Origin: an uncultured Albidiferax sp.
Lineage (GTDB): Bacteria > Pseudomonadota > Gammaproteobacteria > Burkholderiales > Burkholderiaceae_C
Direction: 5' to 3'
Assembly: GCA_963513025.1 (NCBI GenBank)
Contig: CAUPON010000021.1
Location: 6,487 to 70,486 of the forward strand
DNA length: 64,000 bases
Below are positions 31,728-46,118 of this stretch, in pieces. The first letter of the stretch is position 1. Every line of letters begins with the position of its first letter. Under the pieces are notes generated by a model that was given only the letters and a program-made list of their open reading frames with translations, made no database searches and was not told the origin of the DNA. A program made the position numbers and the translations under genes.

Positions 31728-31840
31728 AAAATAAGGACCACAAAAGGTCATTTAATCGGGCCTTGCTGCAGGGGGTGAAGGTTTATCCTCCCACGAGACG
31801 GATGTCCTGTAAACCATCTCTTACGCAAGGCTGATTGACT

Positions 31841-34800
31841 ATGACTGATTTGACGGACGCTGCCAGTCTTGTCTTGCCCGATGTTGATGCGATGCAGGAT
31901 ACCTTGCAGCAGGCGTTGGAGGCCCATAAAAAATGGGAGTTCGTGTCCGCGGAAGCCTTGTACCGCGCGGTGCTGGAGCTTGATCCTCTGCATGCGGATG
32001 CGCACCACAATCTGGGGGTTTTGCTGGCCGTGCAATTGCTGCGACCACAAGAGGCATTGCCGCACTTCGAGGCCGCACTCAATGCGGATGCAGGGCGCCC
32101 GCAGTTCTGGTTCAGTTACATCGACGCCCTGATCCGCTGCCAGCATTTCGATCTGGCGCGCGAGGTGCTTCCGCTGGCCCAGGCCCAGGGTTTGCAGCTG
32201 GCTGCCGTGAATGCCCTGAGTGAACGGTTGCCTCATCTGTCTCTGAATACCGCCCCGCCGGCGCCTTCCGAACCCTCTGCCGAAGAGATGCAAGCCTTGG
32301 TTCAGCTATTCAATCAGGGTGACTATGCACAGGGCGAAGCGCGCGCCCGTGCACTGGTCCAGCGCTGCCCAGAAAATGGTTTCGCCTGGAAGGCGCTGGG
32401 CACCATGCTACAGCCGCAGGGCAAGAAGGAAGAGGCGTTGGCAGCCAAGTTAAAAGCCGTACAGCTTTTGCCAGAGGATGCAGAAGGCCTGTGCAATTTG
32501 GGCCGCTCGTATTTCGAGCTGGGCCAGACCCAGCAGGCCATCGAAGTGTTGCAGGCCTGTGTGTCCGTCAAGCCGGATTACGCTGAGGCTTTCAATAACT
32601 TGGGCTTGGCCTTGAACGCAGACGGCCAGGTGGATGCTGCGCACCGCTGTTTTGAGCGTGCGATCGCCATACAACCCGGTTTCGCGGAAGCGTTGAACAA
32701 TCTGAGTGGCATTTTTAATGTCCATGGCCTGGTGGACGAGGCTGTCGCAGTGCTGCAAAAAGCGGTGGCGGCCAAGGCCGACTACCGCATCGCCTTCGAC
32801 AACCTGCTGTTTGTATTGAATTACCACCCCGACAAGAGCGCGGAAGACATATTTCAAACCTATGGCGAGTACGAGAAGCGCTTTGGACTGCCGCACCGCG
32901 CCAGTTGGGCCCGGCACCAAAACTCGCGCAATGCCCAGCGGCGCTTGAAGGTCGGTTATGTGTCGCCCGACTTCAAAGGCCATGCCTGCACCTTCTTCAT
33001 GGAGCCGCTGCTGTCCAAGCATGACCGCAACCTGATAGATGTCTATGCCTACGCCGAGTTGACCCAAGAAGACGCTGCAACCCAGCGCTACAAGCAATAT
33101 GTAGAGCATTGGGTGCCCACCCGCGGCATGAGCGACGACGCACTGGCCCAGCGCATCCGGGCCGACGGCATCGACATCTTGGTCGACCTGGCGGGCCACA
33201 CCGCCGGCAACCGCCTGGGCGTGTTTGCGCGCAAGCCAGCTCCGGTGTCGCTAAGCTGGATGGGCTTTGGCTACACCACTGGCCTGAAAGCCATCGACTA
33301 CTACCTGACCGACGATGCCAGCGCTCCGGTTGGCTGCGAGCATGTGTTCTCTGAACAACCATGGCGCCTGCCTGATAGCAGCTACGCCGTGTACCGCCCA
33401 GGGGCCGGCATGGGAGAAGTCAGTACGCTGCCCGCGCAGGAACGCGGCTATGTCACCTTGGGCACCTTAACCCGCGGCGTTCGTATCAACCACCACACCA
33501 TCCGCGTCTGGGCCCAAATACTGCAACGCCTGCCCACGGCCCATATTGTCATCGACAGCAGTTCTTTTAAGGACACAACGGTGCGCGACGCCGCGATAGG
33601 CAAATTCGGCGTTTATGGAGTAGCAGCCGAGCGCCTGCACATCGGCTTTAATAGCCCCCCCTGGGATGTGCTGCGCGGAATCGATATCGGCCTGGACTGC
33701 TTCCCGCATAATTCGGGCACCACCTTGTTCGAGACCCTGTACATGGGGCTGCCCTTCATCACCCTGGCCGGTCGGCCCAGCGTAGGCCGCATCGGCAGCG
33801 CCATTCTGCAAGGTCTCGGCCGGCCGGAGTGGATTGCCCAGACGGAAGAAGAATATGTAAACAAGGTGGTCGCCCTGGCATCAGACCTGCCAGCCCTGGC
33901 CCAACTGCGCACCACACTGCGTGCCCAGATGCAGGCCAGCCAGCTGATGGACGAAGTGGGTTTTACGCGCAAGGTCGAGCAAGCCTATGGCCAGATGTTC
34001 GCGCGCTGGGCACAGCAGAACCCTGTATCGCAGGTGGACACCACACCGGCGCTGGTGACGCGCCGCCATGCGCCTAGCGCGGACGAGATGCGCTTGCTGG
34101 CCTCGTTCTTCGAGTCGCGTGACTTTGTCGCCGGCGCTGCGGCCGCGCGCGAAGTGGTGCGTTTGTATCCCCGCGAAGGCTTTGGCTGGAAGGCGCTGGG
34201 CGCCATGCTGCACCCTCTGGGTCTGGTGGATGAGGCGCTGGCGGCCAAAAAGAAGGCCGTGGAGCTGATGCCGCAGGACGCCGAGGCGGCCTGTAACCTG
34301 GGCCAGTCGCTGCAAGACCAGGGGCACTACATGCTGGCCGAGGCCGCCTTGCAGCGGGCTCTGGTGCTGAATCCCGATTACGCGGAGGCCTATAACAACC
34401 TCGCCATCACGTACCAAAAAATGGGCCGTATTGCCGAGTCGGAAACCAACTTCCGGGCCGCTCTGGCGCTGAAACCCCAGCATAAATGGGTGTACGACAA
34501 CTTTTTGTTCACGCTGAACTACCACCCGGAGCACAGCGCCGAAACCATTTTTGAAGCCTACCGCGAATACGAGCGGCGCTTTGGCGATCCGTACCGGGGT
34601 GACTGGGTCGCGCATGGCAATGACCGCAGCCTGGGCCGGCGCTTACGGGTCGGCTATGTGTCGCCCGACTTCCGCAGCCATTCCTGCACTTTCTTCATGG
34701 AGCCCTTGCTGGCCTGGCACGACCCGGCCGTGGTCGAGGTCACTGCCTACGCCGAGCTGAACAAGGAGGATGCCGTCACCCAGCGTTACCAGCGCCATGT

Positions 34801-37800
34801 GGCGCACTGGGTGCCCACGCGCGGCATGAGCGATGCCGATCTGGCCCAGCGTATCCGGGCCGACGGCATCGACATCCTGGTCGACCTGGCTGGCCATACC
34901 GTCGGCAACCGTTTGGGCGTGTTTGCGCGCAAACCGGCCCCGGTGTCGCTGAGCTGGATGGGCTATGGCTACACCACCGGCCTGCGCGCCATCGATTACT
35001 ACCTGACCGACGAGGCCAGCGCCCCTGTAGGCAGCGAAGCGCTGTTCTCCGAGGAACCCTGGCGCCTGCCGGACAGCTGCTACGCTGTGTACCGCCCGGG
35101 CGACGGCATGGGCGAGGTGAACTCCTTGCCGGCGCTGCAGCGCGGGTACGTCACGTTGGGCACCCTGACCCGCGGTGTGCGCATCAACCACCACACGGTC
35201 AGCGTCTGGGCGCGGGTGCTGCAGCGCCTGCCGACTGCCCATCTGGTGGTTGACAGCCGGTCTTTCCAGGACGCGGCGGTACAGGAAGATGTGATGCAGA
35301 AATTTGTGGCCCTGGGCATAGAGCGCGAGCGCCTGCACATTGGCTTCAACAGCCCCCCCTGGGATGTGCTGCGCGGCATCGACATAGGCCTGGACTGCTT
35401 CCCGCACAACTCCGGCACCACCTTGTTCGAGACTCTGTACATGGGCCTGCCGTATGTGACCCTGGCCGGCCGGCCCAGCGTGGGCCGCATCGGCAGCGCC
35501 ATCCTGCACGGTCTCGGCCGTCCGGAGTGGATTGCCACCACCGAAGACGAATACGTGGATAAAGTGGTCGCCCTGGCATCCGATCTACCGGCCTTGGCCC
35601 GGCTGCGTGCTGGTTTGCGTGCGGAGATGCAGGCCAGCCAGTTGATGGATGAAGAGCGCTTCACCCGCAAGATGGAGCAGGCCTATGGCCAGATGTTCGA
35701 ACGCTGGGTCACCCGCACCGCAGCGGGGGCGGTAGAGGTAGTGCCCAGTGCAGACGCTATGAACGGTCTGGTGCGCCTGTACCAAGAGCAGGCTTTTGCA
35801 GAAGGCGAGCAAGCCGCGCAAGCCCTTGTCGCCCGCTATCCTCGCCACGGCTACAGCTGGAAGCTGCTGGGCTCGTTTGCGCAAAAATGCGGCCATGTCG
35901 ACGCGGCTTTGCAGGCCAAGCAACGCGCTGTGCAGCTCCTGCCTGACGATACCGAGGCGTTGTTCAACCTGGCCATGGCCTATGAGCAGCAGGGCCTGAT
36001 GCGGCAAGCCGAGCCCTGCTACCGCGCGCTGATTGCCTTGCAGCCGGGCGATGCCGAGGCGCACCACAACCTCGGCAACACCCTGGTGGGCCAGGGGCGG
36101 CGCAACGAGGCCATTCCTTGTTACCGCGAAGCCTTGCGGCTCAAGCCCGACTTTGAAGCATCGCACCAAAGCCTTGGGGGCTTGTTGCAGGAGTCGGGTG
36201 GCCTAGTCGAGGCGGAATCGGTCTGGCGCAGCCTGCTGCAGCTCAAGCCCGACGATATGCAGGCAGCCTTGCAACTGGGCCGGGTCTTGCAGCAGCAAGG
36301 ACGGCGGGCCGAGGCCGAGGTCAGCTTCCGCAAGGCGGTCGATGTGTCGGACGACAGCCATGTGGGTTACTTCCACCGCGGCAACTTCCTGGGTGAACTG
36401 GGCTTGCTGGCCGAAGCCGAGGCGGATTTGCGCCGGGCTGTGGAGATCGAACCCCAGGCCGCCGAGGCCTGGAGCAATCTTTGCGGCATCCTCAAGGAGC
36501 AGTGCCGGCTGGTGGAGGCCGAGGCCTGCGCCGTCAAAGCCTTGGAGATCAAGCCCGAGTTTGTCGCCGGCTGGGCCAACCATGCGGTGGTCCTGCTGAT
36601 GCAGGGGCGCCTGGCCGAGGCCGAGGTGAGTTTTCGGCGTGCCATGGCCTTGGAGCCGCAGCTGGTGGGCATTTTCTCCAGCCTTCTGTTTGCGCTGAAC
36701 TACGACGCCGATAAAACGGCGGAGGAGATCTACGCCAACTACGCTGAGTTCGACCGGCTTTTTGGCGCTCCGCACCGGTCGGCTTGGCTCCCGCACAGCA
36801 ATCCGCCCGCAGCTGGGCGCCGGCTGAAGGTCGGGTACATGTCGCCCGATTTCAAAGGCCATGCGTGCACCTTCTTTATGGAGCCCCTGCTGTCCCAGCA
36901 CGACCGCAGCGTGGTGGATGTCTATGCCTACGCCGATCTAGTGAAGGAAGACGCTGCAACCCAGCGCTACAAGCAATATGTAGAGCATTGGGTGCCCACC
37001 CGTGGCATGAGCGACGACGCATTGGCCCAGCGTATCCGCGCCGACGGCATCGACATTTTGGTTGACCTGGCGGGCCACACCGCCGGCAACCGTCTGGGCG
37101 TGTTTGCGCGCAAGCCGGCGCCGGTATCTCTGAGCTGGATGGGCTTTGGCTACACCACCGGCCTGAAAGCCATCGACTACTACCTGACCGACGATGCCAG
37201 CGCTCCGGCGGGTTGCGAGCATCTCTTCTCAGAGCAACCCTGGCGCCTGCCCGACAGCAGCTATGCCTCCTACCGGCCCAGCACGAGCATGGGCGAAGTC
37301 AGTACGCTGCCCGCGCTGGAGCGCGGCTATGTCACCCTGGGCACCCTGACCCGCGGCGTGCGCATCAACCGCCACACCATCCGTGTGTGGGCCCAGATAC
37401 TGCAACGCTTGCCTACGGCCCACCTCGTGATGGACAGCAGCTCATTCAAAGACCAGGTAGTGCAGGAATCGGTGGCCCGGAAGTTTGTCGCCTACGGCAT
37501 AGACCGCGCGCGGCTGCACATCGACTACAGCAGCCCGCCGTGGAACGTGCTGCGCGGCATCGACATCGGGTTGGACTGCTTCCCGCACAATTCGGGCACC
37601 ACCTTGTTCGAAACCCTGTACATGGGGCTGCCGTTTGTCACCCTGGCCGGTCGGCCCAGCGTAGGCCGCATTGGCAGCGCCATCCTGCACGGAGTGGGGC
37701 ATCCGGAATGGATTGCCCAGACCGAAGAAGAGTATGTGGACAAGGTCGTCGCCCTGGCCTCGGACCTGCCTGCCTTGGCCCAGCTGCGCACCACACTACG

Positions 37801-37906
37801 TGCCCAGATGCAGGCCAGCCAGCTGATGGACGAGGTGGGCTTTACGCGCAAGGTTGAGCAGGCCTATGGCCAGATGTTCGCACGCTGGAAGGAGCAGCAA
37901 AAATGA
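31841..37906 (+). CDS. Giant TPR / GT41 (OGT/SPINDLY-like) glycosyltransferase with three catalytic modules
   Basis: TPR blocks ([16 protein letters not shown]) alternate with three copies of [60 protein letters not shown]; ATG 31841 (the ORF track starts at TTG 31835). Confidence 0.9.
32795..34009 (+). repeat. GT41 module 1 (1215 bp)
   Basis: [13 protein letters not shown]...YGQMFARW. Confidence 0.85.
34493..35707 (+). repeat. GT41 module 2 (1215 bp)
   Basis: [13 protein letters not shown]...YGQMFERW; offset 1698 bp from module 1. Confidence 0.85.
36674..37888 (+). repeat. GT41 module 3 (1215 bp)
   Basis: [13 protein letters not shown]...YGQMFARW; offset 3879 bp from module 1; 56-bp exact match 33068-33123 vs 36947-37002. 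Confidence 0.85.
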
Positions 37907-38673
37907 AAGCAGTGATATTGGCCGGGGGCTTGGGCACCCGGATTTCCGAAGAGACGCATCTGCGCCCCAAGCCCATGATCGAGATCGGCGGCAAGCCCAT
38001 ACTTTGGCACATCCTGAAGATGTATTCGGCCCACGGCGTGAACGACTTTGTGATCTGCTGCGGCTACAAGGGCTACATCATCAAGGAATACTTCGCCAAC
38101 TACTTTCTGCACATGTCCGACGTGACCTTCGACATGGCGCAGAACCGCATGGAAGTGCACCACAAGCACGCCGAACCCTGGAAGGTCACCCTGGTGGACA
38201 CGGGAGACGACTCCATGACCGGCGGCCGCCTCAAGCGCGTAGCCGACTACGTGAAAAACGAGCCTGCCTTCTGCTTCACCTATGGCGATGGCGTGTCTGA
38301 CGTGGACATCAGCGCCAGCATTGCCTTCCACCAGCAGCACGGCAAGCTGGCCACGGTGACGGCCGTACAGCCCCCGGGCCGCTATGGCGCGCTGCGCATG
38401 GAGGGCGACGTGGTGCAGGGTTTTACTGAGAAGCCGCGTGGCGACGGCGGCCTGATCAACGGTGGCTTCTTCGTGCTTTCACCCCAGGTGCTGGACCGCA
38501 TCGTCGGCGACAGCACCAGCTGGGAAGCCGAGCCGCTGGCCGGTCTGGCCGAGGAAGGCCAGCTGCGCGCCTACGAGCACACCGGCTTCTGGCAGCCAAT
38601 GGACACGCTGCGCGAGAAAAACCTGCTGGAAGAACTCTGGTCCTCCGGCAAAGCCCCCTGGAAAAAATGGTAA
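37903..38673 (+). CDS. rfbF: Glucose-1-phosphate cytidylyltransferase
   Basis: [46 protein letters not shown]; ATGA overlap with the GT gene. Confidence 0.95.
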
Positions 38674-39728
38674 CCAGCGTCTGGACAAATACCCCGGTTT
38701 TCTTGACCGGCCACACCGGCTTCAAAGGCGGCTGGTTGACCCTGGCCTTGCACGCCATGGGGGCCAAGGTCCACGGCTATGCGCTGGACCCGCACACCCA
38801 GCCCAGTCTGTTCGAGGTGGCGCGCGTGGCCGATGCCCTGGCCAGCGACACCCGGGCCGATTTGGCTGACCGAGCGGCGCTGCAGGCGGCCTTGGCCGCG
38901 GCCCAGCCCACGGTGGTGTTCCACCTGGCCGCCCAGCCCCTGGTGCGCGCCAGCTATGCCGACCCTTTGGGTACTTTTGCCACCAATGTGATGGGCACGG
39001 CCCATCTGCTGGAGGCCGTGCGCCAGGTGCCCAGCGTGCGCGCCGTGGTGGTGGTGACCACCGACAAGGTCTACGACAACCGCGAATGGGTCTACCCCTA
39101 CCGCGAAGCCGATGCCCTGGGCGGCCACGACCCCTACAGCGCCAGCAAGGGCGCCGCCGAGATCGTCGCCGCCAGCTACCGCGCCAGCTTCTTCCATGGC
39201 GCCGATGCGGCGCAGATCGCCACGGCGCGCGCCGGCAATGTGATCGGTGGCGGCGACTGGGCGGCAGACCGCCTGGTGCCCGACTGCCTGCAGGCCTTTG
39301 CCGCCGGCCAGCCGGTGCAGCTGCGCTACCCCGGCGCCGTGCGCCCCTGGCAGCACGTGCTAGAGCCCTTGTCCGGGTATGTTCGCTTGGCCGAACACCT
39401 GTTGGCCCGTGCGCCAGAGGCCGCCAGCGCCTGGAACTTTGGCCCCGACGCCCGCGGCGACGCCAGCGTGGGCCAATTGGCCCAGCGCCTGGCCAGCCTG
39501 TGGGGGCAGGGCGCCCGCGTGGACATGCCTGACGGCGGCGACCATCCCCACGAGGCCGGCCTGCTGCGCCTGGACATCACCCGCGCCCGCGCCCAGCTGG
39601 ACTGGCAGCCGCGCTGGAGCCTGGACCAGGCGCTGGAGCACACAGTGGCCTGGCACCGCGCCTGGCGTGCGGGTGAAGACATGGCCCAGCTCTGCCGCAG
39701 CCAGATGGAGGCCTATGGCCCGTTGTAA
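38667..39728 (+). CDS. rfbG: CDP-glucose 4,6-dehydratase
   Basis: [50 protein letters not shown]. Confidence 0.95.
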
Positions 39729-39732
39729 TTTT

Positions 39733-39790
39733 TTTGCTATTTTATTGATAGCTTCTCGCGCAGGTGATACCTGCGCTAGAGGCCAATTTT
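39733..39790 (+). repeat. REP-like repeat, copy 4 (inside the sugar operon)
   Basis: GCTAT-tttattg-ATAGC-ttctc-GCGCAGGT-gat-ACCTGCGC-TAGAGGC; perfect 8-bp stem 39758-39776. Confidence 0.8.
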
Positions 39791-39812
39791 GTTCAAAGAA
39801 AGTGGCGCAGCC

Positions 39813-40373
39813 ATGAGCCGCTTTGAATTGCAAGCCACCCCGCTGTCCGGTCTGTGGGTGGTGCAGCGCCAGCGCCTGGGCGATGCCCGGGGCTTTCTGT
39901 CGCGCTTGTTCTGCGCCGACGAGCTGGCTGCGGCCGGCTGGGTCGGTGCCATTGCCCAAATCAACCACACCCAGACGGCCGAGCCCGGCACCGTGCGCGG
40001 CCTGCACTTCCAGCACCCGCCGCATGCCGAGATGAAGCTGGTCAGCTGCATACGCGGCGCGGTGTGGGACGTGGCGGTGGACCTGCGGCCCGACTCGCCT
40101 ACCTATCTGCGCTGGCATGCCGAGACGCTGTCGGCCGACAACCAGCGTGCGCTGCTGATCCCCCCCGGCTTTGCCCACGGCTTCCAGGCGCTGGAGGCCG
40201 ATGTGGAAATGCTGTACTGCCATTCCCAGGCCTACGCCCCGCAGAGCGAGGCCGGCTTGCACCCGCAGGACCCGCGCCTGGCCATTGCTTGGCCGCTGCC
40301 GGTGCGCGGCCTGTCTGCCCGTGACGCCAGCCACCCGCCGATGGGCGATGATTTTGAAGGAGTTCGTTTGTGA
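39813..40373 (+). CDS. rfbC: NDP-4-keto-6-deoxyhexose 3,5-(or 5-)epimerase (RmlC/RfbC cupin family)
   Basis: DARGFL, VRGLHFQ, KLVSCIRGAVWDVAVDLR, GFAHGFQAL; start re-called to ATG 39813. Confidence 0.88.
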   Translation: MSRFELQATPLSGLWVVQRQRLGDARGFLSRLFCADELAAAGWVGAIAQINHTQTAEPGTVRGLHFQHPPHAEMKLVSCIRGAVWDVAVDLRPDSPTYLRWHAETLSADNQRALLIPPGFAHGFQALEADVEMLYCHSQAYAPQSEAGLHPQDPRLAIAWPLPVRGLSARDASHPPMGDDFEGVRL

Positions 40374-41599
40374 AATGCCGCCACTGTGGGGCCCTGCTGA
40401 GCCTGCCTTTTCTGGACCTGGGCAGCGCGCCGCCCAGCAATGCCTACCTGACCGACACCACACTGAACGCGCCCGAGGTCTGGTACCCGCTGCGCGTGCT
40501 GGTCTGCCAGCACTGCTGGTTGGTGCAAACCGAGGACCACGCCGGGCGCGAGGCCTTGTTTACCGCCGACTACGCCTACTTCAGCAGCATCTCCAGCTCC
40601 TGGCTGGCCCATGCCCAGGCCTATGTGGTCGAGATGCAGCAGCGCTTCGCACTCGGCGCGCAGAGCCGGGTGGTCGAGGTCGCCTCCAACGACGGCTATC
40701 TGCTGCAGTACGTGCAGGCCGCTGGCGTGCCTTGCTACGGAATCGAGCCCACGGCCAGCACGGCGGCCGCCGCCAAGGCCAAGGGTATTGCGGTGGTGGA
40801 GCGCTTCTTTGGCGTGGCGCTGGCGCAGGAGCTGGTGGCCCAGGGCCAGCAGGCCGACCTGACCGCCGCCAACAATGTGTTGGCCCATGTGCCCGACATC
40901 AACGACTTCGTTGCCGGCTTTGCCGCGCTGCTCAAGCCCCAGGGCGTGGCGACCTTCGAGTTCCCGCATGTGCAGCAGATGGTGCAGCAGTGCCAGTTCG
41001 ACACCGCTTACCACGAGCACTATTCCTACCTGTCGCTCACGGCGGTACAGCGCATCTTTGCCGCCAATGGTCTGCAGGTGTTCGACGTGCAAGAGCTGCC
41101 CACCCATGGCGGCAGCCTGCGCGTATTCGCCCAGCGGGCCGATACCGGCACCCAGCCTGTGGCACCCGCTGTGCAGCAGGTGCTGCTGGGCGAAGAAGCG
41201 GCCGGCATGCGCACGCCTGATTTCTACAGCCAATTTGGCGCCCAGAGCAGGCGCATCGCGCGTGAGCTGCTCTCATTTTTGGTAAACGCCGCACATGCGG
41301 GCACCTCTATCGCCGCCTATGGTGCCGCCGCCAAAGGCAACACTCTGCTGAACTTTGCCGGCGTGCGCCCGCACCTGCTGCCCTATGTGGTGGACCGTGC
41401 CCCGGCCAAGCAGGGCAAATACATGCCCGGCAGCCGTATCCCCATCGTGGACGAAGCCCAGCTGCGCGCGCAGCAGCCGCGCTATGTGCTTATCCTGCCG
41501 TGGAATCTGCAGGCCGAGGTGATGGAGCAGCTGGCTTACATCCGCGACTGGGGTGGTCGCTTTGTCACCGCCGTGCCCGGGCTGGTCGTGTGGCCGTGA
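40370..41599 (+). CDS. SAM-dependent NDP-hexose C-methyltransferase (TylCIII/EryBIII/NovU/TcaB9 family)
   Basis: Zn site CRHC...CQHC, YAYFSS, EVASNDGYLL, NVLAHV, YHEHYSY, PTHGGSLR, YGAAAKGNTLLN. Confidence 0.9.
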   Translation: MKCRHCGALLSLPFLDLGSAPPSNAYLTDTTLNAPEVWYPLRVLVCQHCWLVQTEDHAGREALFTADYAYFSSISSSWLAHAQAYVVEMQQRFALGAQSRVVEVASNDGYLLQYVQAAGVPCYGIEPTASTAAAAKAKGIAVVERFFGVALAQELVAQGQQADLTAANNVLAHVPDINDFVAGFAALLKPQGVATFEFPHVQQMVQQCQFDTAYHEHYSYLSLTAVQRIFAANGLQVFDVQELPTHGGSLRVFAQRADTGTQPVAPAVQQVLLGEEAAGMRTPDFYSQFGAQSRRIARELLSFLVNAAHAGTSIAAYGAAAKGNTLLNFAGVRPHLLPYVVDRAPAKQGKYMPGSRIPIVDEAQLRAQQPRYVLILPWNLQAEVMEQLAYIRDWGGRFVTAVPGLVVWP

Positions 41600-42480
41600 A
41601 GGTACTGCTCACCGGCGCCAGCGGCTACCTGGGCCGCTACGTGCTGGCCAGCCTGCGCGCGCAGGGCTGTGAGGTGGTGGTACTGGGTCGCAGCCTGCCT
41701 GCCGGCTTTGAGGATGTACCCCTGGTGCCCTGCGACCTGCTCGACGGCGCGGATCTGGCGGCAGCAGTGCAGCAGGCCGGCGCCACCCATCTCATGCACC
41801 TGGCCTGGACCACCGAATACGGCGTGTACTGGGCGTCGCCGTTGAACTTCCGCTGGGTCGATGCAACCTTGCGCCTGTTACAGGCCTTTTGCGACGCCGG
41901 TGGCCGGCATGTGGCCATCGCCGGCACCTGCGCCGAATACGACTGGGCCTCCGGTTATCTGCGCGAAGACGCCACGCCCTATGCGCCGGCCACGCTGTAC
42001 GGAGTGGCCAAGGACGCGACCCGCCGCATGGCCGCGGCGCTGTGTGCGGCCCGCGGCGTGTCGCTTGCCTGGGGCCATATCTTCTTCCCATTCGGTCCGG
42101 GCGAGGCCACCCAGCGCATGCTGCCCTCGCTGCTGCGGGTGTTCCGCGGCCAGGCGGAGCCTTTCGGGGTGAATCTGGCGGCTTACCGCGGCATGCTGTA
42201 TGTGCCGGATGCGGCGAATGCGCTGGCGACCGTGCTGCTGCAGGGCTGCAAGGGCAACTTCAATATCTGCTCGGGCCAGCCGGCGCTGATCGGCGACGTA
42301 GTGCAGACCCTGGCCCGTTTGTGCAATGCCGACCCCGTTCCGGTGCTGGCCCTTGCGACTGCCCGCCCCGGCGATCCACCGATGCTGGTGGGCGAAAACA
42401 CCCGCTTGCTGGCCACCGGCTGGCGACCTACTTTTACGCTGGAGCAGGGCCTGGCCGCCCTGGTCCGTTCAACAGCTTGA
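41596..42480 (+). CDS. NAD(P)-dependent NDP-4-ketosugar reductase/epimerase (extended SDR)
   Basis: VLLTGASGYLG, GTCAEY, LYGVAK; GTG start 41596 overlaps the previous stop. Confidence 0.88.
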   Translation: MKVLLTGASGYLGRYVLASLRAQGCEVVVLGRSLPAGFEDVPLVPCDLLDGADLAAAVQQAGATHLMHLAWTTEYGVYWASPLNFRWVDATLRLLQAFCDAGGRHVAIAGTCAEYDWASGYLREDATPYAPATLYGVAKDATRRMAAALCAARGVSLAWGHIFFPFGPGEATQRMLPSLLRVFRGQAEPFGVNLAAYRGMLYVPDAANALATVLLQGCKGNFNICSGQPALIGDVVQTLARLCNADPVPVLALATARPGDPPMLVGENTRLLATGWRPTFTLEQGLAALVRSTA

Positions 42481-42498
42481 TGCCAACAGGAGATCTCT

Positions 42499-43281
42499 AT
42501 GACCACCCCAGAACAACAATTTGCGGCCGAGCGCCAAGAGCGGCTCAGCGCCTACGCACAAGACAACGCGTTCAAAGACCTGTCGCGCCAATGGCTGCAA
42601 ATGTCGATGGACAAAAAGTATGTATACAACTTTGACTGGCTCGGCCGGCCCATCATCCAGTACCCGCAGGACATGGTCGCTATCCAGGAGCTGGTTTGGA
42701 CGGTGCGCCCTGATCTGATCATTGAAACCGGCATTGCCCACGGTGGCTCGTTGATCCTCAGTGCGTCCATGCTGGCCATGCTGGACATGTGCGATGCCAT
42801 TGAAAGCGGCACCAGCATTGATCCACGGGTGTCGGCGCGCAAGGTGATTGGCATCGACATCGACATCCGCGAGCACAACCGTGCCGCCATCCAAGCCCAC
42901 CCCATGGCCAGCCGCATCCAGATGGTGCAGGGCTCGTCGATTGCGGCGGATGTGGTGGCCCAGGTGCGGGAAGCGGCGCAGGGCTACAAAAAAGTGATGG
43001 TGTTCCTGGATTCCATGCACACCCACGACCACGTGCTGGGCGAGTTGGATGCATATGCGCCGCTGGTTAGCCCGGGCAGCTACTGCGTGGTGTTCGACAC
43101 CTTTGTGGAAGACATGCCGCCCAAATTCTTTGCCGACCGCCCCTGGGATATCGGCAACAACCCCAAGACCGCCACCCGCCAGTGGTTGAAGGGCCACCCG
43201 GAGTTTGTGGTGGACCCTGCGGCCGAATCGCGGCTGATGGTGACGGTGGCGCCCGAAGGCTTCCTGAAGCGCTTGGCCTAG
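42499..43281 (+). CDS. CmcI / cephalosporin-hydroxylase family protein (probable sugar O-methyltransferase)
   Basis: WLGRPIIQYPQDM, PDLIIETGIAHGGS, VFLDSMHTHDHV, YCVVFDT. Confidence 0.85.
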   Translation: MTTPEQQFAAERQERLSAYAQDNAFKDLSRQWLQMSMDKKYVYNFDWLGRPIIQYPQDMVAIQELVWTVRPDLIIETGIAHGGSLILSASMLAMLDMCDAIESGTSIDPRVSARKVIGIDIDIREHNRAAIQAHPMASRIQMVQGSSIAADVVAQVREAAQGYKKVMVFLDSMHTHDHVLGELDAYAPLVSPGSYCVVFDTFVEDMPPKFFADRPWDIGNNPKTATRQWLKGHPEFVVDPAAESRLMVTVAPEGFLKRLA

Positions 43282-43431: not shown

Positions 43432-44655
43432 TTATTGTTGCAGCAGGGTCAGCACGCTCTGTGGCAGCTTGTTGGCTTGGGCCACCATGGCGGTACCTGC
43501 CTGTTGCAGGATCTGGGTGCGCGACAGATTGGCGGTTTCCATTGCGAAGTCGGCGTCCACGATCCGGCCCTTGGCGGCAGCCAGGTTTTCGATCTGGATG
43601 CTGATGTTGCTGACCGCGCTTTCAAAGCGGCTTTGTAAGGCGCCGAGGCCGGCACGCGCCGAGTTCACCTGGTCGATGGCTTCGTCGATCTTCTTCAGCG
43701 CGACCCAGGAGTTACGCTGTGTATCCACCGTCAAGGTGTCGATGCCCAAGGCGTCGGTGGTTGTGTCGGTGGAGTTGATGTTGGAAGCCAATGCGCCGCC
43801 GGCCAAGCCGGTGGTGGCGGTGGTGAAGCCGGCCAGGGTCACGACCTTGGCGTCGCCAGCCGAGTCGAGCTCGGCGGACATCAGGTCGATGCGGTAGGTC
43901 TGGTCGTCGTTTTGCGACAGGAAGGCTGTCACACCAGTGTCCGCAGACTTACGGTTGATCGCCTCGATAACCTGTCCCATGCGTTCTTCGCCTGAATTGG
44001 CAGCGGAAATCGCGCCCAGATCAAAAGCCGCGGTGTCGCCGGTGACCGAAATCGTCAAGGTGTTGCTGGCGAGGGAGGTAAGTGTGCTGACGGCGGATGC
44101 GTCCACATTGCTAGCGGTCTGGTCGAATGCGTAGGCCACATCGGACAAACCCTTGGCGGTCGAGTTGGTCAAGGCGCCCAGCGATGCCACGTCGCCAGAG
44201 TTGGCGCCCACCTGGAACACCGCGCCAGCAAACGAGCCGTCGAGGATTTTTTTGCCGTTGAACGAGGTTTGCTTGGCAATCCGGTCGACTTCGTCTGTCA
44301 GCTGTGTAACTTCAGCCTGCAGCGCGGCACGGTCGGCTTTGCTATTGGTCGCATTGCTGGCCTGGACTGCCAGTTCACGCATACGTTGCAGCATGTCGCC
44401 CACCTTGCCCAACGCGCCTTCAGCGGTTTGCGCCAGCGAAATGCCGTCGTTGGCGTTACGCGCCCCGACGGTCAGGCCGCGCACCTGGGTGGTCATGCGT
44501 TCCGAAATGGCCAAACCGGCTGCATCGTCCTTGGCGCTATTGACCCGCAAGCCGGAAGACAGGCGTTGCATGGAGGTTGCCAGCGAGTTGGCCGAGGTAG
44601 CCAGGTTGCGCTGCGCATTGAGCGAATTGATGTTCGTGTTGATCGTTGCAGCCAT
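43432..44655 (-). CDS. fliC: Flagellin 1
   Basis: QRLSSGLRVNSAKDDAAGLAIS, LQRMRELAVQASN, RIVDADFAMETANLSRTQILQQAG. Confidence 0.97.
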   Translation of the reverse strand: MAATINTNINSLNAQRNLATSANSLATSMQRLSSGLRVNSAKDDAAGLAISERMTTQVRGLTVGARNANDGISLAQTAEGALGKVGDMLQRMRELAVQASNATNSKADRAALQAEVTQLTDEVDRIAKQTSFNGKKILDGSFAGAVFQVGANSGDVASLGALTNSTAKGLSDVAYAFDQTASNVDASAVSTLTSLASNTLTISVTGDTAAFDLGAISAANSGEERMGQVIEAINRKSADTGVTAFLSQNDDQTYRIDLMSAELDSAGDAKVVTLAGFTTATTGLAGGALASNINSTDTTTDALGIDTLTVDTQRNSWVALKKIDEAIDQVNSARAGLGALQSRFESAVSNISIQIENLAAAKGRIVDADFAMETANLSRTQILQQAGTAMVAQANKLPQSVLTLLQQ

Positions 44656-44897: not shown

Positions 44898-46118
44898 ATG
44901 TCCACCTCTATCAATACGAACATCAATTCGCTCAATGCGCAGCGCAATTTGATGTCGTCGGCCAACTCGTTGGCGACGTCTATGCAGCGTTTGTCCTCGG
45001 GTTTGCGGGTGAACAGCGCCAAGGATGATGCCGCCGGCTTGGCGATTTCCGAGCGCTTCCTGACCCAGGCCAAAGGTTTGACGGTCGGTGCCCGTAACTC
45101 CAACGACGGCATTTCGCTGGCGCAAACCGCTGAAGGCGCGTTGGGTAAGGTCGGCGACATGCTGCAGCGTATGCGTGAACTGGCAGTCCAGGCCAGCAAT
45201 GCAACCAACAGCAAGGCCGACCGCGCTGCACTTCAGTCCGAAGTTTCCCAGCTGACCGACGAAGTCGACCGGATTGCCAAGCAAACCACCTTCAACGGCA
45301 AAAAAGTGTTGGACGGTTCGTTCGCCGGTGCAGTGTTCCAGGTGGGCGCCAACGCTGGTGACAATATTTCTGTGGGTGCACTGACCAATTCCAGTGCCAA
45401 GGGTTTGTCCGATGTGTCATACGCCTTCGACCAAGCTGCCAGCAATGTGGATGCTTCTGCCGTCAGCACGCTGACTTCCATCGCCACCAACGTCTTGACG
45501 GTGTCGGTGACAGGCGATGCTGCTGCCTTTGATCTGGGGGCGATTGCCGCCGCCAGCTCTGGCGAAGAGCGTATGGGCCAGATCGTTGAAGCAATCAACC
45601 GTAAGTCTGCCGATACCGGTGTGACGGCCTTCTTGTCGCAAAACGACGACCAGACCTACCGTGTCGACCTGATGTCCAGTGAACTGGACTCGGCTGGCGA
45701 CGCCAAGGTTGTGACTCTGGCTGGTTTCACCACCGCCACCACCGGCTTGGCCGGCGGCGCATTGGCCTCTAATATCAATGCCACCAATACCACCACCGAT
45801 GCCCTGGGTATCGATACCTTGACGGTGGACACACAGCGCAACTCCTGGGTCGCGCTGAAGAAGATCGACGCCGCCATCGACCAGGTGAACTCGGCACGTG
45901 CGGATCTGGGTGCTTTGCAAAGCCGCTTTGAAAGCGCCGTGGGCAATATTGCGATCAGCGTGGAAAACATCTCTGCTGCACGTGGTCGGATTGTGGATGC
46001 TGACTTCGCGTCGGAAACCGCCAATCTGTCGCGTACCCAGATCCTGCAGCAGGCAGGTACCGCCATGGTGGCCCAGGCCAACAAGCTGCCACAGAGCGTG
46101 CTGTCTCTGCTGCAATAA
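44898..46118 (+). CDS. fliC: Flagellin 2
   Basis: Same conserved termini as flagellin 1; central region highly similar. Confidence 0.97.
   Translation: MSTSINTNINSLNAQRNLMSSANSLATSMQRLSSGLRVNSAKDDAAGLAISERFLTQAKGLTVGARNSNDGISLAQTAEGALGKVGDMLQRMRELAVQASNATNSKADRAALQSEVSQLTDEVDRIAKQTTFNGKKVLDGSFAGAVFQVGANAGDNISVGALTNSSAKGLSDVSYAFDQAASNVDASAVSTLTSIATNVLTVSVTGDAAAFDLGAIAAASSGEERMGQIVEAINRKSADTGVTAFLSQNDDQTYRVDLMSSELDSAGDAKVVTLAGFTTATTGLAGGALASNINATNTTTDALGIDTLTVDTQRNSWVALKKIDAAIDQVNSARADLGALQSRFESAVGNIAISVENISAARGRIVDADFASETANLSRTQILQQAGTAMVAQANKLPQSVLSLLQ

Follow-up and report, generated by a model that had tools for sequence, protein, structure and literature searches.

A gene with three TPR-GT41 units in a flagellar locus of Albidiferax encodes a candidate three-headed flagellin O-glycosyltransferase

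Little is understood about how O-glycosyltransferases choose their protein sites; in OGT, SPY and FlmG, the tetratricopeptide repeat (TPR) region selects the acceptor and the GT-B domain the donor. A stretch of 64,000 nucleotides from an uncultured Albidiferax sp. (assembly GCA_963513025.1, contig CAUPON010000021.1, positions 6,487 to 70,486 of the forward strand; hereafter the window) raises the question of what three such pairs do in a single chain. Its forward-strand open reading frame (ORF) 31841–37906 encodes TPR-GT41-TPR-GT41-TPR-GT41, with three units head to tail in one intact polypeptide. Below, each TPR block is called an arm and each GT41 catalytic domain a head. We consider it on balance probable that this gene encodes a three-headed flagellin O-glycosyltransferase whose heads share one donor and whose three arms address different acceptor sites or states.

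Results

The frame is open to position 37906 and comprises 2023 codons from a TTG at 31835 or 2021 codons from the ATG at 31841; the ATG is the likelier start, because P0002, an ortholog with 97% identity, also has 2021 amino acids. PF13844 (Glyco_transf_41) matched the product with 432.7 bits (cut-off 25) in six stretches, corresponding to an N-lobe and a C-lobe for each of three heads, and many TPR families of Pfam matched the same protein. Direct repeats, spaced 1698 and 2181 nt apart, run through the gene in a constant register. Once aligned in register, the three heads are gapless blocks of 405 codons (1215 nt), and the TPR blocks preceding heads 1, 2 and 3 measure 951, 483 and 966 nt. 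A first-pass annotation of the bare sequence had described this architecture, with catalytic modules of 1215 bp at the same offsets and unequal TPR blocks of about 950, 480 and 965 bp, and our analysis agrees with it on each count.

Pairwise identity among the heads is 77%, 83% and 75.5% in protein and 78%, 82% and 77% in DNA. The corresponding dS values are 0.65–0.82, with a dN/dS of 0.16–0.20 for every pair, indicating that the three heads are old copies under purifying selection. These figures also bear on whether repeats inflated a gene with fewer units during assembly, a concern because the genome is a draft of 55 contigs. Exact repeats within the gene reach at most 56 nt, between copies that differ at about one-fifth of their nucleotides; P0002, likewise with three heads, comes from an independent assembly; arm lengths are conserved in 13 orthologs; and genes with three or four heads, that is, the same or larger layouts, were found in five chromosome-sized records of relatives. 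An assembly artefact is therefore very unlikely, and we give it practically no credence.

The evolution of the arms was compared with that of the heads in 13 close three-head orthologs. Each arm was 55–73% identical to the arm at the same position in the orthologs over its full length, but only ∼40% identical to non-matching arms, and this over just 135–170 residues. Arm lengths were conserved at ∼318, 160 and 322 amino acids. Orthologous arms had a mean identity of 64–66% and were never homogenized, even where the heads were. The heads behaved differently. Those of the window protein resemble one another (75–83%) as closely as orthologous heads do between species (mean 76–77%). Heads 1 and 3 were 99% identical within each of P0013, P0016 and P0020, all three heads were 99% identical in P0033, and heads 1 and 2 were 91% identical in P0003, whereas the arms of proteins with homogenized heads were just 30–45% alike.

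Arm identity could also be followed across proteins with other numbers of units. The window arms 1, 2 and 3 correspond to arms 1 (59–62%), 3 (50–55%) and 4 (∼40%) of four-head proteins, respectively, and two-head proteins carry the equivalents of arms 1 and 3, the latter as their arm 2. The head tree departs from this arm history, as the heads of the three-head clade all group beside head 1 of the four-head proteins. Because the head tree does not follow arm homology while the arms keep their identity, we conclude that heads have repeatedly been overwritten by gene conversion and that units have been gained and lost in register. With heads homogenized and arms conserved by position, the most economical view of function is that heads, unlike arms, are largely interchangeable.

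Near-interchangeable heads, homogenized in several lineages, would also be expected if the three units did the same job at the same sites, with copy number raising local enzyme concentration or processivity on a substrate with many sites. The occurrence of one to four units with the same sugar cassette and flagellin set (see below) points the same way. Such redundancy appears improbable to us, since equivalent arms would not be expected to remain conserved by position in both sequence and length and to escape homogenization altogether.

We then compared the units with enzymes of known structure. In sequence, unit 2 matched SPY with an E value of 1e-102, Thermobaculum OGT with 1.6e-77, human OGT with 1.4e-75 and XcOGT with ∼1e-28. 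The AlphaFold model of unit 3 (733 amino acids; pLDDT 89.7, pTM 0.79), a prediction that the first-pass annotation had proposed, shows nine TPRs, a capping helix and a transitional helix followed by the GT-B domain. Foldseek placed Arabidopsis SPY at the top for this model, with a TMq of 0.72–0.76 over the whole unit, and gave a TMt of 0.90 for TtOGT; hOGT scored 0.55–0.59. As judged from the modeled fold, each unit is a complete SPINDLY-like TPR and GT41 enzyme; the first-pass annotation had likewise counted three complete TPR-GT41 units.

Positions tested in the SPY structure paper (PMC9715652), in which K665 was essential and S496 mattered for activity, were transferred to the heads by sequence alignment. 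SPY residues D491, H495 and T748 are retained in all three heads, and every head carries DF(K/R)xH, whose His corresponds to hOGT H498 and SPY H495, and NSGTT, the SPY T747/T748 loop. Four other positions are changed in all heads: N661 to Thr, the phosphate-binding Lys K665 (hOGT K842) to Arg (in TRGVRIN), the guanine-stacking H728 to Pro and Y744 of the fucose pocket to His. The S496 position holds Ser in head 2 and Ala in heads 1 and 3. This Ala could be taken to mean that a single head is catalytic and that the others are pseudo-enzymes serving as scaffolds or flagellin-binding modules. We regard this as very improbable, because no head has lost the Asp and His of DFxxH, the TRGVRIN Arg or the phosphate loop GTT, every pair of heads shows the low dN/dS given above, and gene conversion keeps the heads alike.

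The donor-contact motifs are identical among heads 1–3, and in 17 heads from six genomes the K665 and Y744 positions are always Arg and His. A second GT41 is encoded on another contig of the Albidiferax genome (C37:5000-9000) by a single-head ORF of 771 amino acids. It shares only 32% identity with the window heads and retains the canonical Lys (NNNYKYT) together with DTFPFNAGTT; it is probably an OGT/SPY-like housekeeping enzyme that uses a different donor. Given the invariant Arg and His in the heads and the Lys kept in the 771-residue enzyme, the flagellin-island heads form a distinct R/H subfamily of GT41. The change of K665 to Arg is conservative; membership in GT41 by homology stands, and use of the same donor type does not follow from it. 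The R/H signature would fit, rather than prove, a donor other than UDP- or GDP-sugars.

This signature was also surveyed across the family. Among 744 heads, the K665 column holds Arg in 451 and Lys in 288, and the R/H and K/Y signatures are almost never mixed within one protein. Uniform signatures include RRR/HHH (41 proteins), RRRR/HHHH (53) and KKK/YYY (22), and the window protein is of this uniform kind. The Lys/Arg column is non-uniform in 16 of 242 multi-head proteins, and about a dozen truly mix Arg and Lys, for example P0046 (RRKK/HHVV). Mixed signatures, or Tyr alternating with Phe at the sugar pocket of Lys heads, were seen in P0046, P0047, P0151, P0198, P0235 and the K-type five-head proteins. 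Proteins with mixed signatures are better candidates for an assembly line with several donors than the window protein.

The gene lies within a flagellar locus (Table 1). On its 5′ side, motA, motB, cheY, cheZ, flhB, flhA and flhF are encoded on the opposite strand; on its 3′ side are six sugar genes, two flagellin genes, fliD, fliS, fliF and fliG. Thus, a glycosyltransferase gene and dedicated sugar-nucleotide genes sit inside the flagellar locus and adjoin the flagellins, and the locus is most likely a flagellin glycosylation island whose donor, as suggested by the gene set, would be a CDP-activated C-methylated 6-deoxyhexose. The glycosyltransferase gene and the sugar operon are probably co-transcribed, because the first ATG of the operon overlaps the glycosyltransferase stop codon. 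Read from its listed GTG, the reductase ORF shares its first 100 nt with the C-methyltransferase gene; its true start is probably near 41596, since the Rhodoferax koreense ortholog has 297 amino acids. No second glycosyltransferase gene was found in the flagellin island, and no NeuB/Pse-type gene in the annotated ORFs from 23.9 to 52 kb, where the operon (37903–43281) is of the CDP-hexose type. The 214-bp spacer between motA and the glycosyltransferase gene contains no sigma-70-like promoter. The sigma-28 pattern TAAA-N14-17-GCCGATAA has no match in the window; GCCGATAA is present at ∼31610 without a correctly spaced −35 element.

Table 1. The three-unit gene, its parts (TPR counts from a purpose-built repeat profile) and the adjoining sugar and flagellin genes, in window coordinates
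Feature	Position	Strand	Evidence or remark
Three-unit TPR-GT41 gene	31841–37906, stop included	+	In-frame TTG at 31835 also possible
Arm 1: N-terminal TPR-like subdomain, then 5 TPRs (aa 148–316)	31841–32791	+	Repeat profile, orthology
Head 1: GT41 catalytic domain, A type (aa 320–724)	32792–34006	+	
Linker and arm 2: 4 TPRs (aa 748–883)	34007–34489	+	Repeat profile, orthology
Head 2: GT41 catalytic domain, B type (aa 886–1290)	34490–35704	+	DFRSHSC; Ser at SPY S496 position; Arg in DSRSFQD
Linker and arm 3: 9 TPRs (aa 1305–1610)	35705–36670	+	Repeat profile, unit 3 model
Head 3: GT41 catalytic domain, A type (aa 1613–2017)	36671–37885	+	
Glucose-1-phosphate cytidylyltransferase	37903–38673	+	TIGR02623, 478.9 bits (cut-off 300)
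CDP-glucose 4,6-dehydratase	38667–39728	+	TIGR02622, 491 bits (cut-off 278)
RmlC-type 3,5-epimerase-like protein	39789–40373	+	PF00908; TIGR01221, 148 bits, slightly below cut-off
Sugar C-methyltransferase	40370–41599	+	Methyltransf_13/14
SDR-type sugar reductase/epimerase	41500–42480	+	Listed start is GTG
RMNT/CmcI-family O-methyltransferase	42499–43281	+	PF04989, 315.9 bits
Flagellin 1, 407 aa, presumed acceptor	43432–44655	−	
Flagellin 2, 406 aa, presumed acceptor	44898–46118	+	89% identical to flagellin 1

The locus recurs in other bacteria. R. koreense has the same six sugar genes and two flagellin genes with a four-head glycosyltransferase. The same arrangement with three heads was found in Comamonadaceae OS-1 (with a variant sugar set), in Herbaspirillum and in Desulfomarina, which has two further GT41 genes. 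In Desulfomarina profundi (AP024086), adjacent GT41 genes of 2063, 806 and 1014 amino acids with overlapping ends lie between flagellin and CDP-sugar genes, and the three could be a split or frameshifted version of a longer multi-head gene. In Pseudomonas xionganensis, a one-head glycosyltransferase of 944 amino acids is followed by the same sugar genes in the same order.

A survey of the sugar cassette was made through its C-methyltransferase and covered the best 80 loci. This GT41 was near the cassette in 15 of the 80 and a flagellin gene was nearby in 12; GT41 was present at 10 of these 12 flagellin-adjacent loci. The CDP-6-deoxy-C-methyl-hexose cassette is widespread, many Pseudomonas included, and the six genes presumably constitute a portable sugar module that is used elsewhere too. 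Azotobacter is the source of CDP-vinelose, which we presume the cassette product could resemble; Azotobacter was absent from the best 80 loci.

The first-pass annotation had implied that the layout is unique and had proposed a count of GT41 domains per protein in databases. Such counts showed multi-head proteins to be common. A search that admitted only long proteins gave, among the 120 best full-length homologs and by a purpose-built head profile, four heads in 62, three in 36, two in 18, five in 3 and one in 2. In species-representative genomes, 590 stretches encode a relative; the complete ORFs at the best 85 of these 590 loci had one head in 66 cases, two in 8, three in 11 and four in 6. 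One head searched against 1.84 billion cluster representatives retrieved 17,658 of them at E ≤ 1e-30; the majority of the 150 with the highest scores, in a ranking that favors multi-head proteins, had 2–6 matched stretches. The longest proteins seen were P0123 (3732 amino acids, six GT41 heads) and P0122 (3798 amino acids, five heads). A genome of the same genus contains an ORF of 2593 residues, which is as long as the four-head relatives and has three or more listed N-lobe matches, and the matches listed in a family-level genome search were mostly single-head GT41 ORFs of 600–850 amino acids. Carriers include Rhodoferax/Albidiferax, Variovorax, Pseudorhodoferax, Herbaspirillum, Hyphomicrobium, Caulobacteraceae, Acetobacteraceae, Desulfobulbales-like genomes and Gallionella. 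The head counts and this range of carriers indicate that the multi-head architecture is widespread. No description of, or experimental work on, a multi-head or multi-module GT41 protein was found in the literature searched; the layout is real and unstudied, yet common in environmental bacteria.

Discussion

In the reading that we prefer, the three-unit protein would be a cytoplasmic SPINDLY-type (GT41) protein O-glycosyltransferase, each unit of which leads from a TPR superhelix arm into a two-lobed GT-B head. All heads would draw on one donor, a CDP-activated C-methylated 6-deoxyhexose that the co-transcribed six-gene operon supplies, and would place this sugar on Ser/Thr of both flagellins prior to export; an O-methyl group would come from the CmcI-type enzyme. 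The arms would dock the heads onto different flagellin sites or states, so that arms determine where and heads determine what is attached. In-register recombination between similar heads would homogenize them and would add or remove arm-plus-head units, which would explain relatives with two, three and four heads.

Several observations weigh against this reading. Both donor and acceptor are assigned from the gene neighborhood only, and the cassette stands without this GT41 at 65 of the 80 loci surveyed. The two flagellins are so similar that the arms probably do not discriminate between them. Some homologs stand away from flagellin genes; the four-head homolog of Hyphomicrobium, for example, has none within 10 kb. 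A two-head AlphaFold model (head 1, arm 2 and head 2), built on an alignment of 14 close orthologs, had a pLDDT of 62.7 and a pTM of 0.34, with low confidence in the linker. Four-head relatives have heads that are old and specific to their position. In the tree of the three-head orthologs, heads 1 and 3 intermix, and a starred clade (98/95) consists of 13 of the 14 head-2 sequences and the converted head 1 of P0003; with head 2 conserved as a subtype in this way, equivalence of the heads is in doubt.

In Hyphomicrobium sp. DMF-1 (CP115706), the four-head homolog adjoins an RMNT/CmcI methyltransferase and a protein of >5975 amino acids with no Pfam match. The target of this homolog may be a giant surface protein rather than flagellin.

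The head-2 subtype is marked by two conserved substitutions, A384S, at the SPY S496 position beside the His of DFxxH, and S576R. The first-pass annotation had listed three motif differences in module 2 as putative pocket changes (DFRSHSC for DFKGHAC, MGYGY for MGFGY and SRSFQD for SSSFKD); all are present in the sequence, and the first and third are conserved features of head 2 while the second is not. They open the way to an assembly line in which heads 1 and 3, of the A type, would link the first sugar to Ser/Thr while the B-type head 2 acts on another acceptor, for example by extending that sugar, to give a short chain. Consistent with this idea, head 2 forms its own clade in 13 of 14 orthologs, A384S and S576R lie by the active-site His, heads are position-specific in the four-head relatives, and the island contains no other glycosyltransferase. 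In the wider family, one head often differs from the rest at the S496 column (ASA 9, AAAS 18, ASAA 9 and SSSA 10), alongside uniform patterns (AAA 10, VVV 10 and SSS 8), and a few relatives, such as P0046, mix donor signatures.

Other evidence makes such an assembly line unlikely, although it is the alternative that we take most seriously. All donor-contact motifs agree among the three heads. In P0033 the three heads are nearly identical and in P0003 head 1 has been converted to the head-2 type, with both reading frames open. The Ser-type head sits behind non-orthologous arms in three-head and four-head proteins, and in Pseudomonas a single-head enzyme serves the same sugar cassette. If the assembly line of the first-pass annotation is read as one with different donors, it is not supported: heads are 99% identical in several orthologs, a single donor pathway is co-transcribed with the gene, and a four-head relative and a one-head Pseudomonas relative share its sugar cassette. 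The part of that proposal in which each unit recognizes a different site fits the position-specific arms (55–73% versus ∼40%), and a distinct, conserved subtype of head 2 is also borne out.

Among known systems, the closest is Arabidopsis SPY, a GT41 protein O-fucosyltransferase (PDB 7Y4I and 8DTF–8DTI; PMC9715652, PMC10027727). It is the best match in both sequence and fold, with a TPR superhelix, a two-lobed GT-B domain and conserved D491/H495 and T748, and it is itself a cytoplasmic enzyme that transfers a 6-deoxyhexose to protein Ser/Thr. SPY has one module, forms a homodimer and uses GDP-fucose, whereas the window protein has three modules per chain and CDP-sugar genes as neighbors, and it carries Arg, Thr, Pro and His in place of K665, N661, H728 and Y744. 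Human OGT, Thermobaculum terrenum OGT (5DJS) and Xanthomonas XcOGT (2JLB/2VSN) share the GT41 family, the fold and acceptor selection by TPRs. They differ in having a single module and in keeping the Lys at the phosphate position; among them, only metazoan enzymes have UDP-GlcNAc as a proven donor.

FlmG of Caulobacter crescentus and Brevundimonas, compared by domain layout, is a soluble flagellin O-glycosyltransferase with an N-terminal TPR region and a C-terminal GT-B domain and follows the same logic of an address plus a head. Domain swaps in FlmG showed that the TPR region binds flagellin and that GT-B sets donor specificity (PMC7591256; bioRxiv 10.1101/2022.03.25.485807). FlmG has one unit and Pse/Leg (nonulosonic acid) donors, whereas the window has this layout three times over together with CDP-hexose genes. 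HMW1C, in which the same enzyme also forms the hexose-hexose bond, differs from the window protein in that it is a single module that lacks a TPR arm and acts on Asn, and it matches the window heads weakly (E ∼1e-6). HMW1C is a bacterial cytoplasmic GT41 N-glycosyltransferase that, in likeness to the proposed activity, glycosylates a surface protein at many sites, and HMW1 carries mono- and di-hexoses (PMC2877744, PMC3012730). Enterobacterial flagellin islands contain SPINDLY-family GT41/COG3914 genes with sugar-biosynthesis genes, according to the portion of De Maayer and Cowan 2016 (PMC4875605) used here; in that portion these are comparative-genomics predictions, none of them characterized, the donors are guessed to be GlcNAc derivatives, and tandem heads are not mentioned.

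Two flagellin glycosyltransferases of relatives, Acidovorax Fgt and Burkholderia cenocepacia FlmQ (BCAL0111), were set aside as comparisons, since their GT family is not established from the papers. We take Acidovorax avenae to belong to the same family as Rhodoferax. Its flagellin glycosylation depends on Fgt (PMC4622738). For Rhodoferax itself, the literature searched yielded no data on flagellin glycosylation. Pseudomonas aeruginosa FgtA (PA1091) was rejected as a GT41 enzyme, because it is a GT2 domain fused to a phosphotransferase (PMC11833859).

The finding bears on the rule that TPRs select the acceptor and GT-B the donor: several different arms on interchangeable heads are a natural experiment on it, and a multi-arm protein could guide the design of programmable protein glycosylation. 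Both the R/H signature and the CDP-sugar operon next to the gene point to a kind of donor that has yet to be described in GT41. As a more tentative proposal, in which we place rather little confidence as a whole, each of the three arms might bring a different flagellin site to a SPINDLY-type head that is nearly the same in all units, and the protein might be the first GT41 type with a CDP-linked branched sugar, marked by the changes of Lys to Arg and Tyr to His; in-register recombination between heads that adds, drops and reshuffles arms might then retune the filament glycans, for example under phage or host-recognition pressure.

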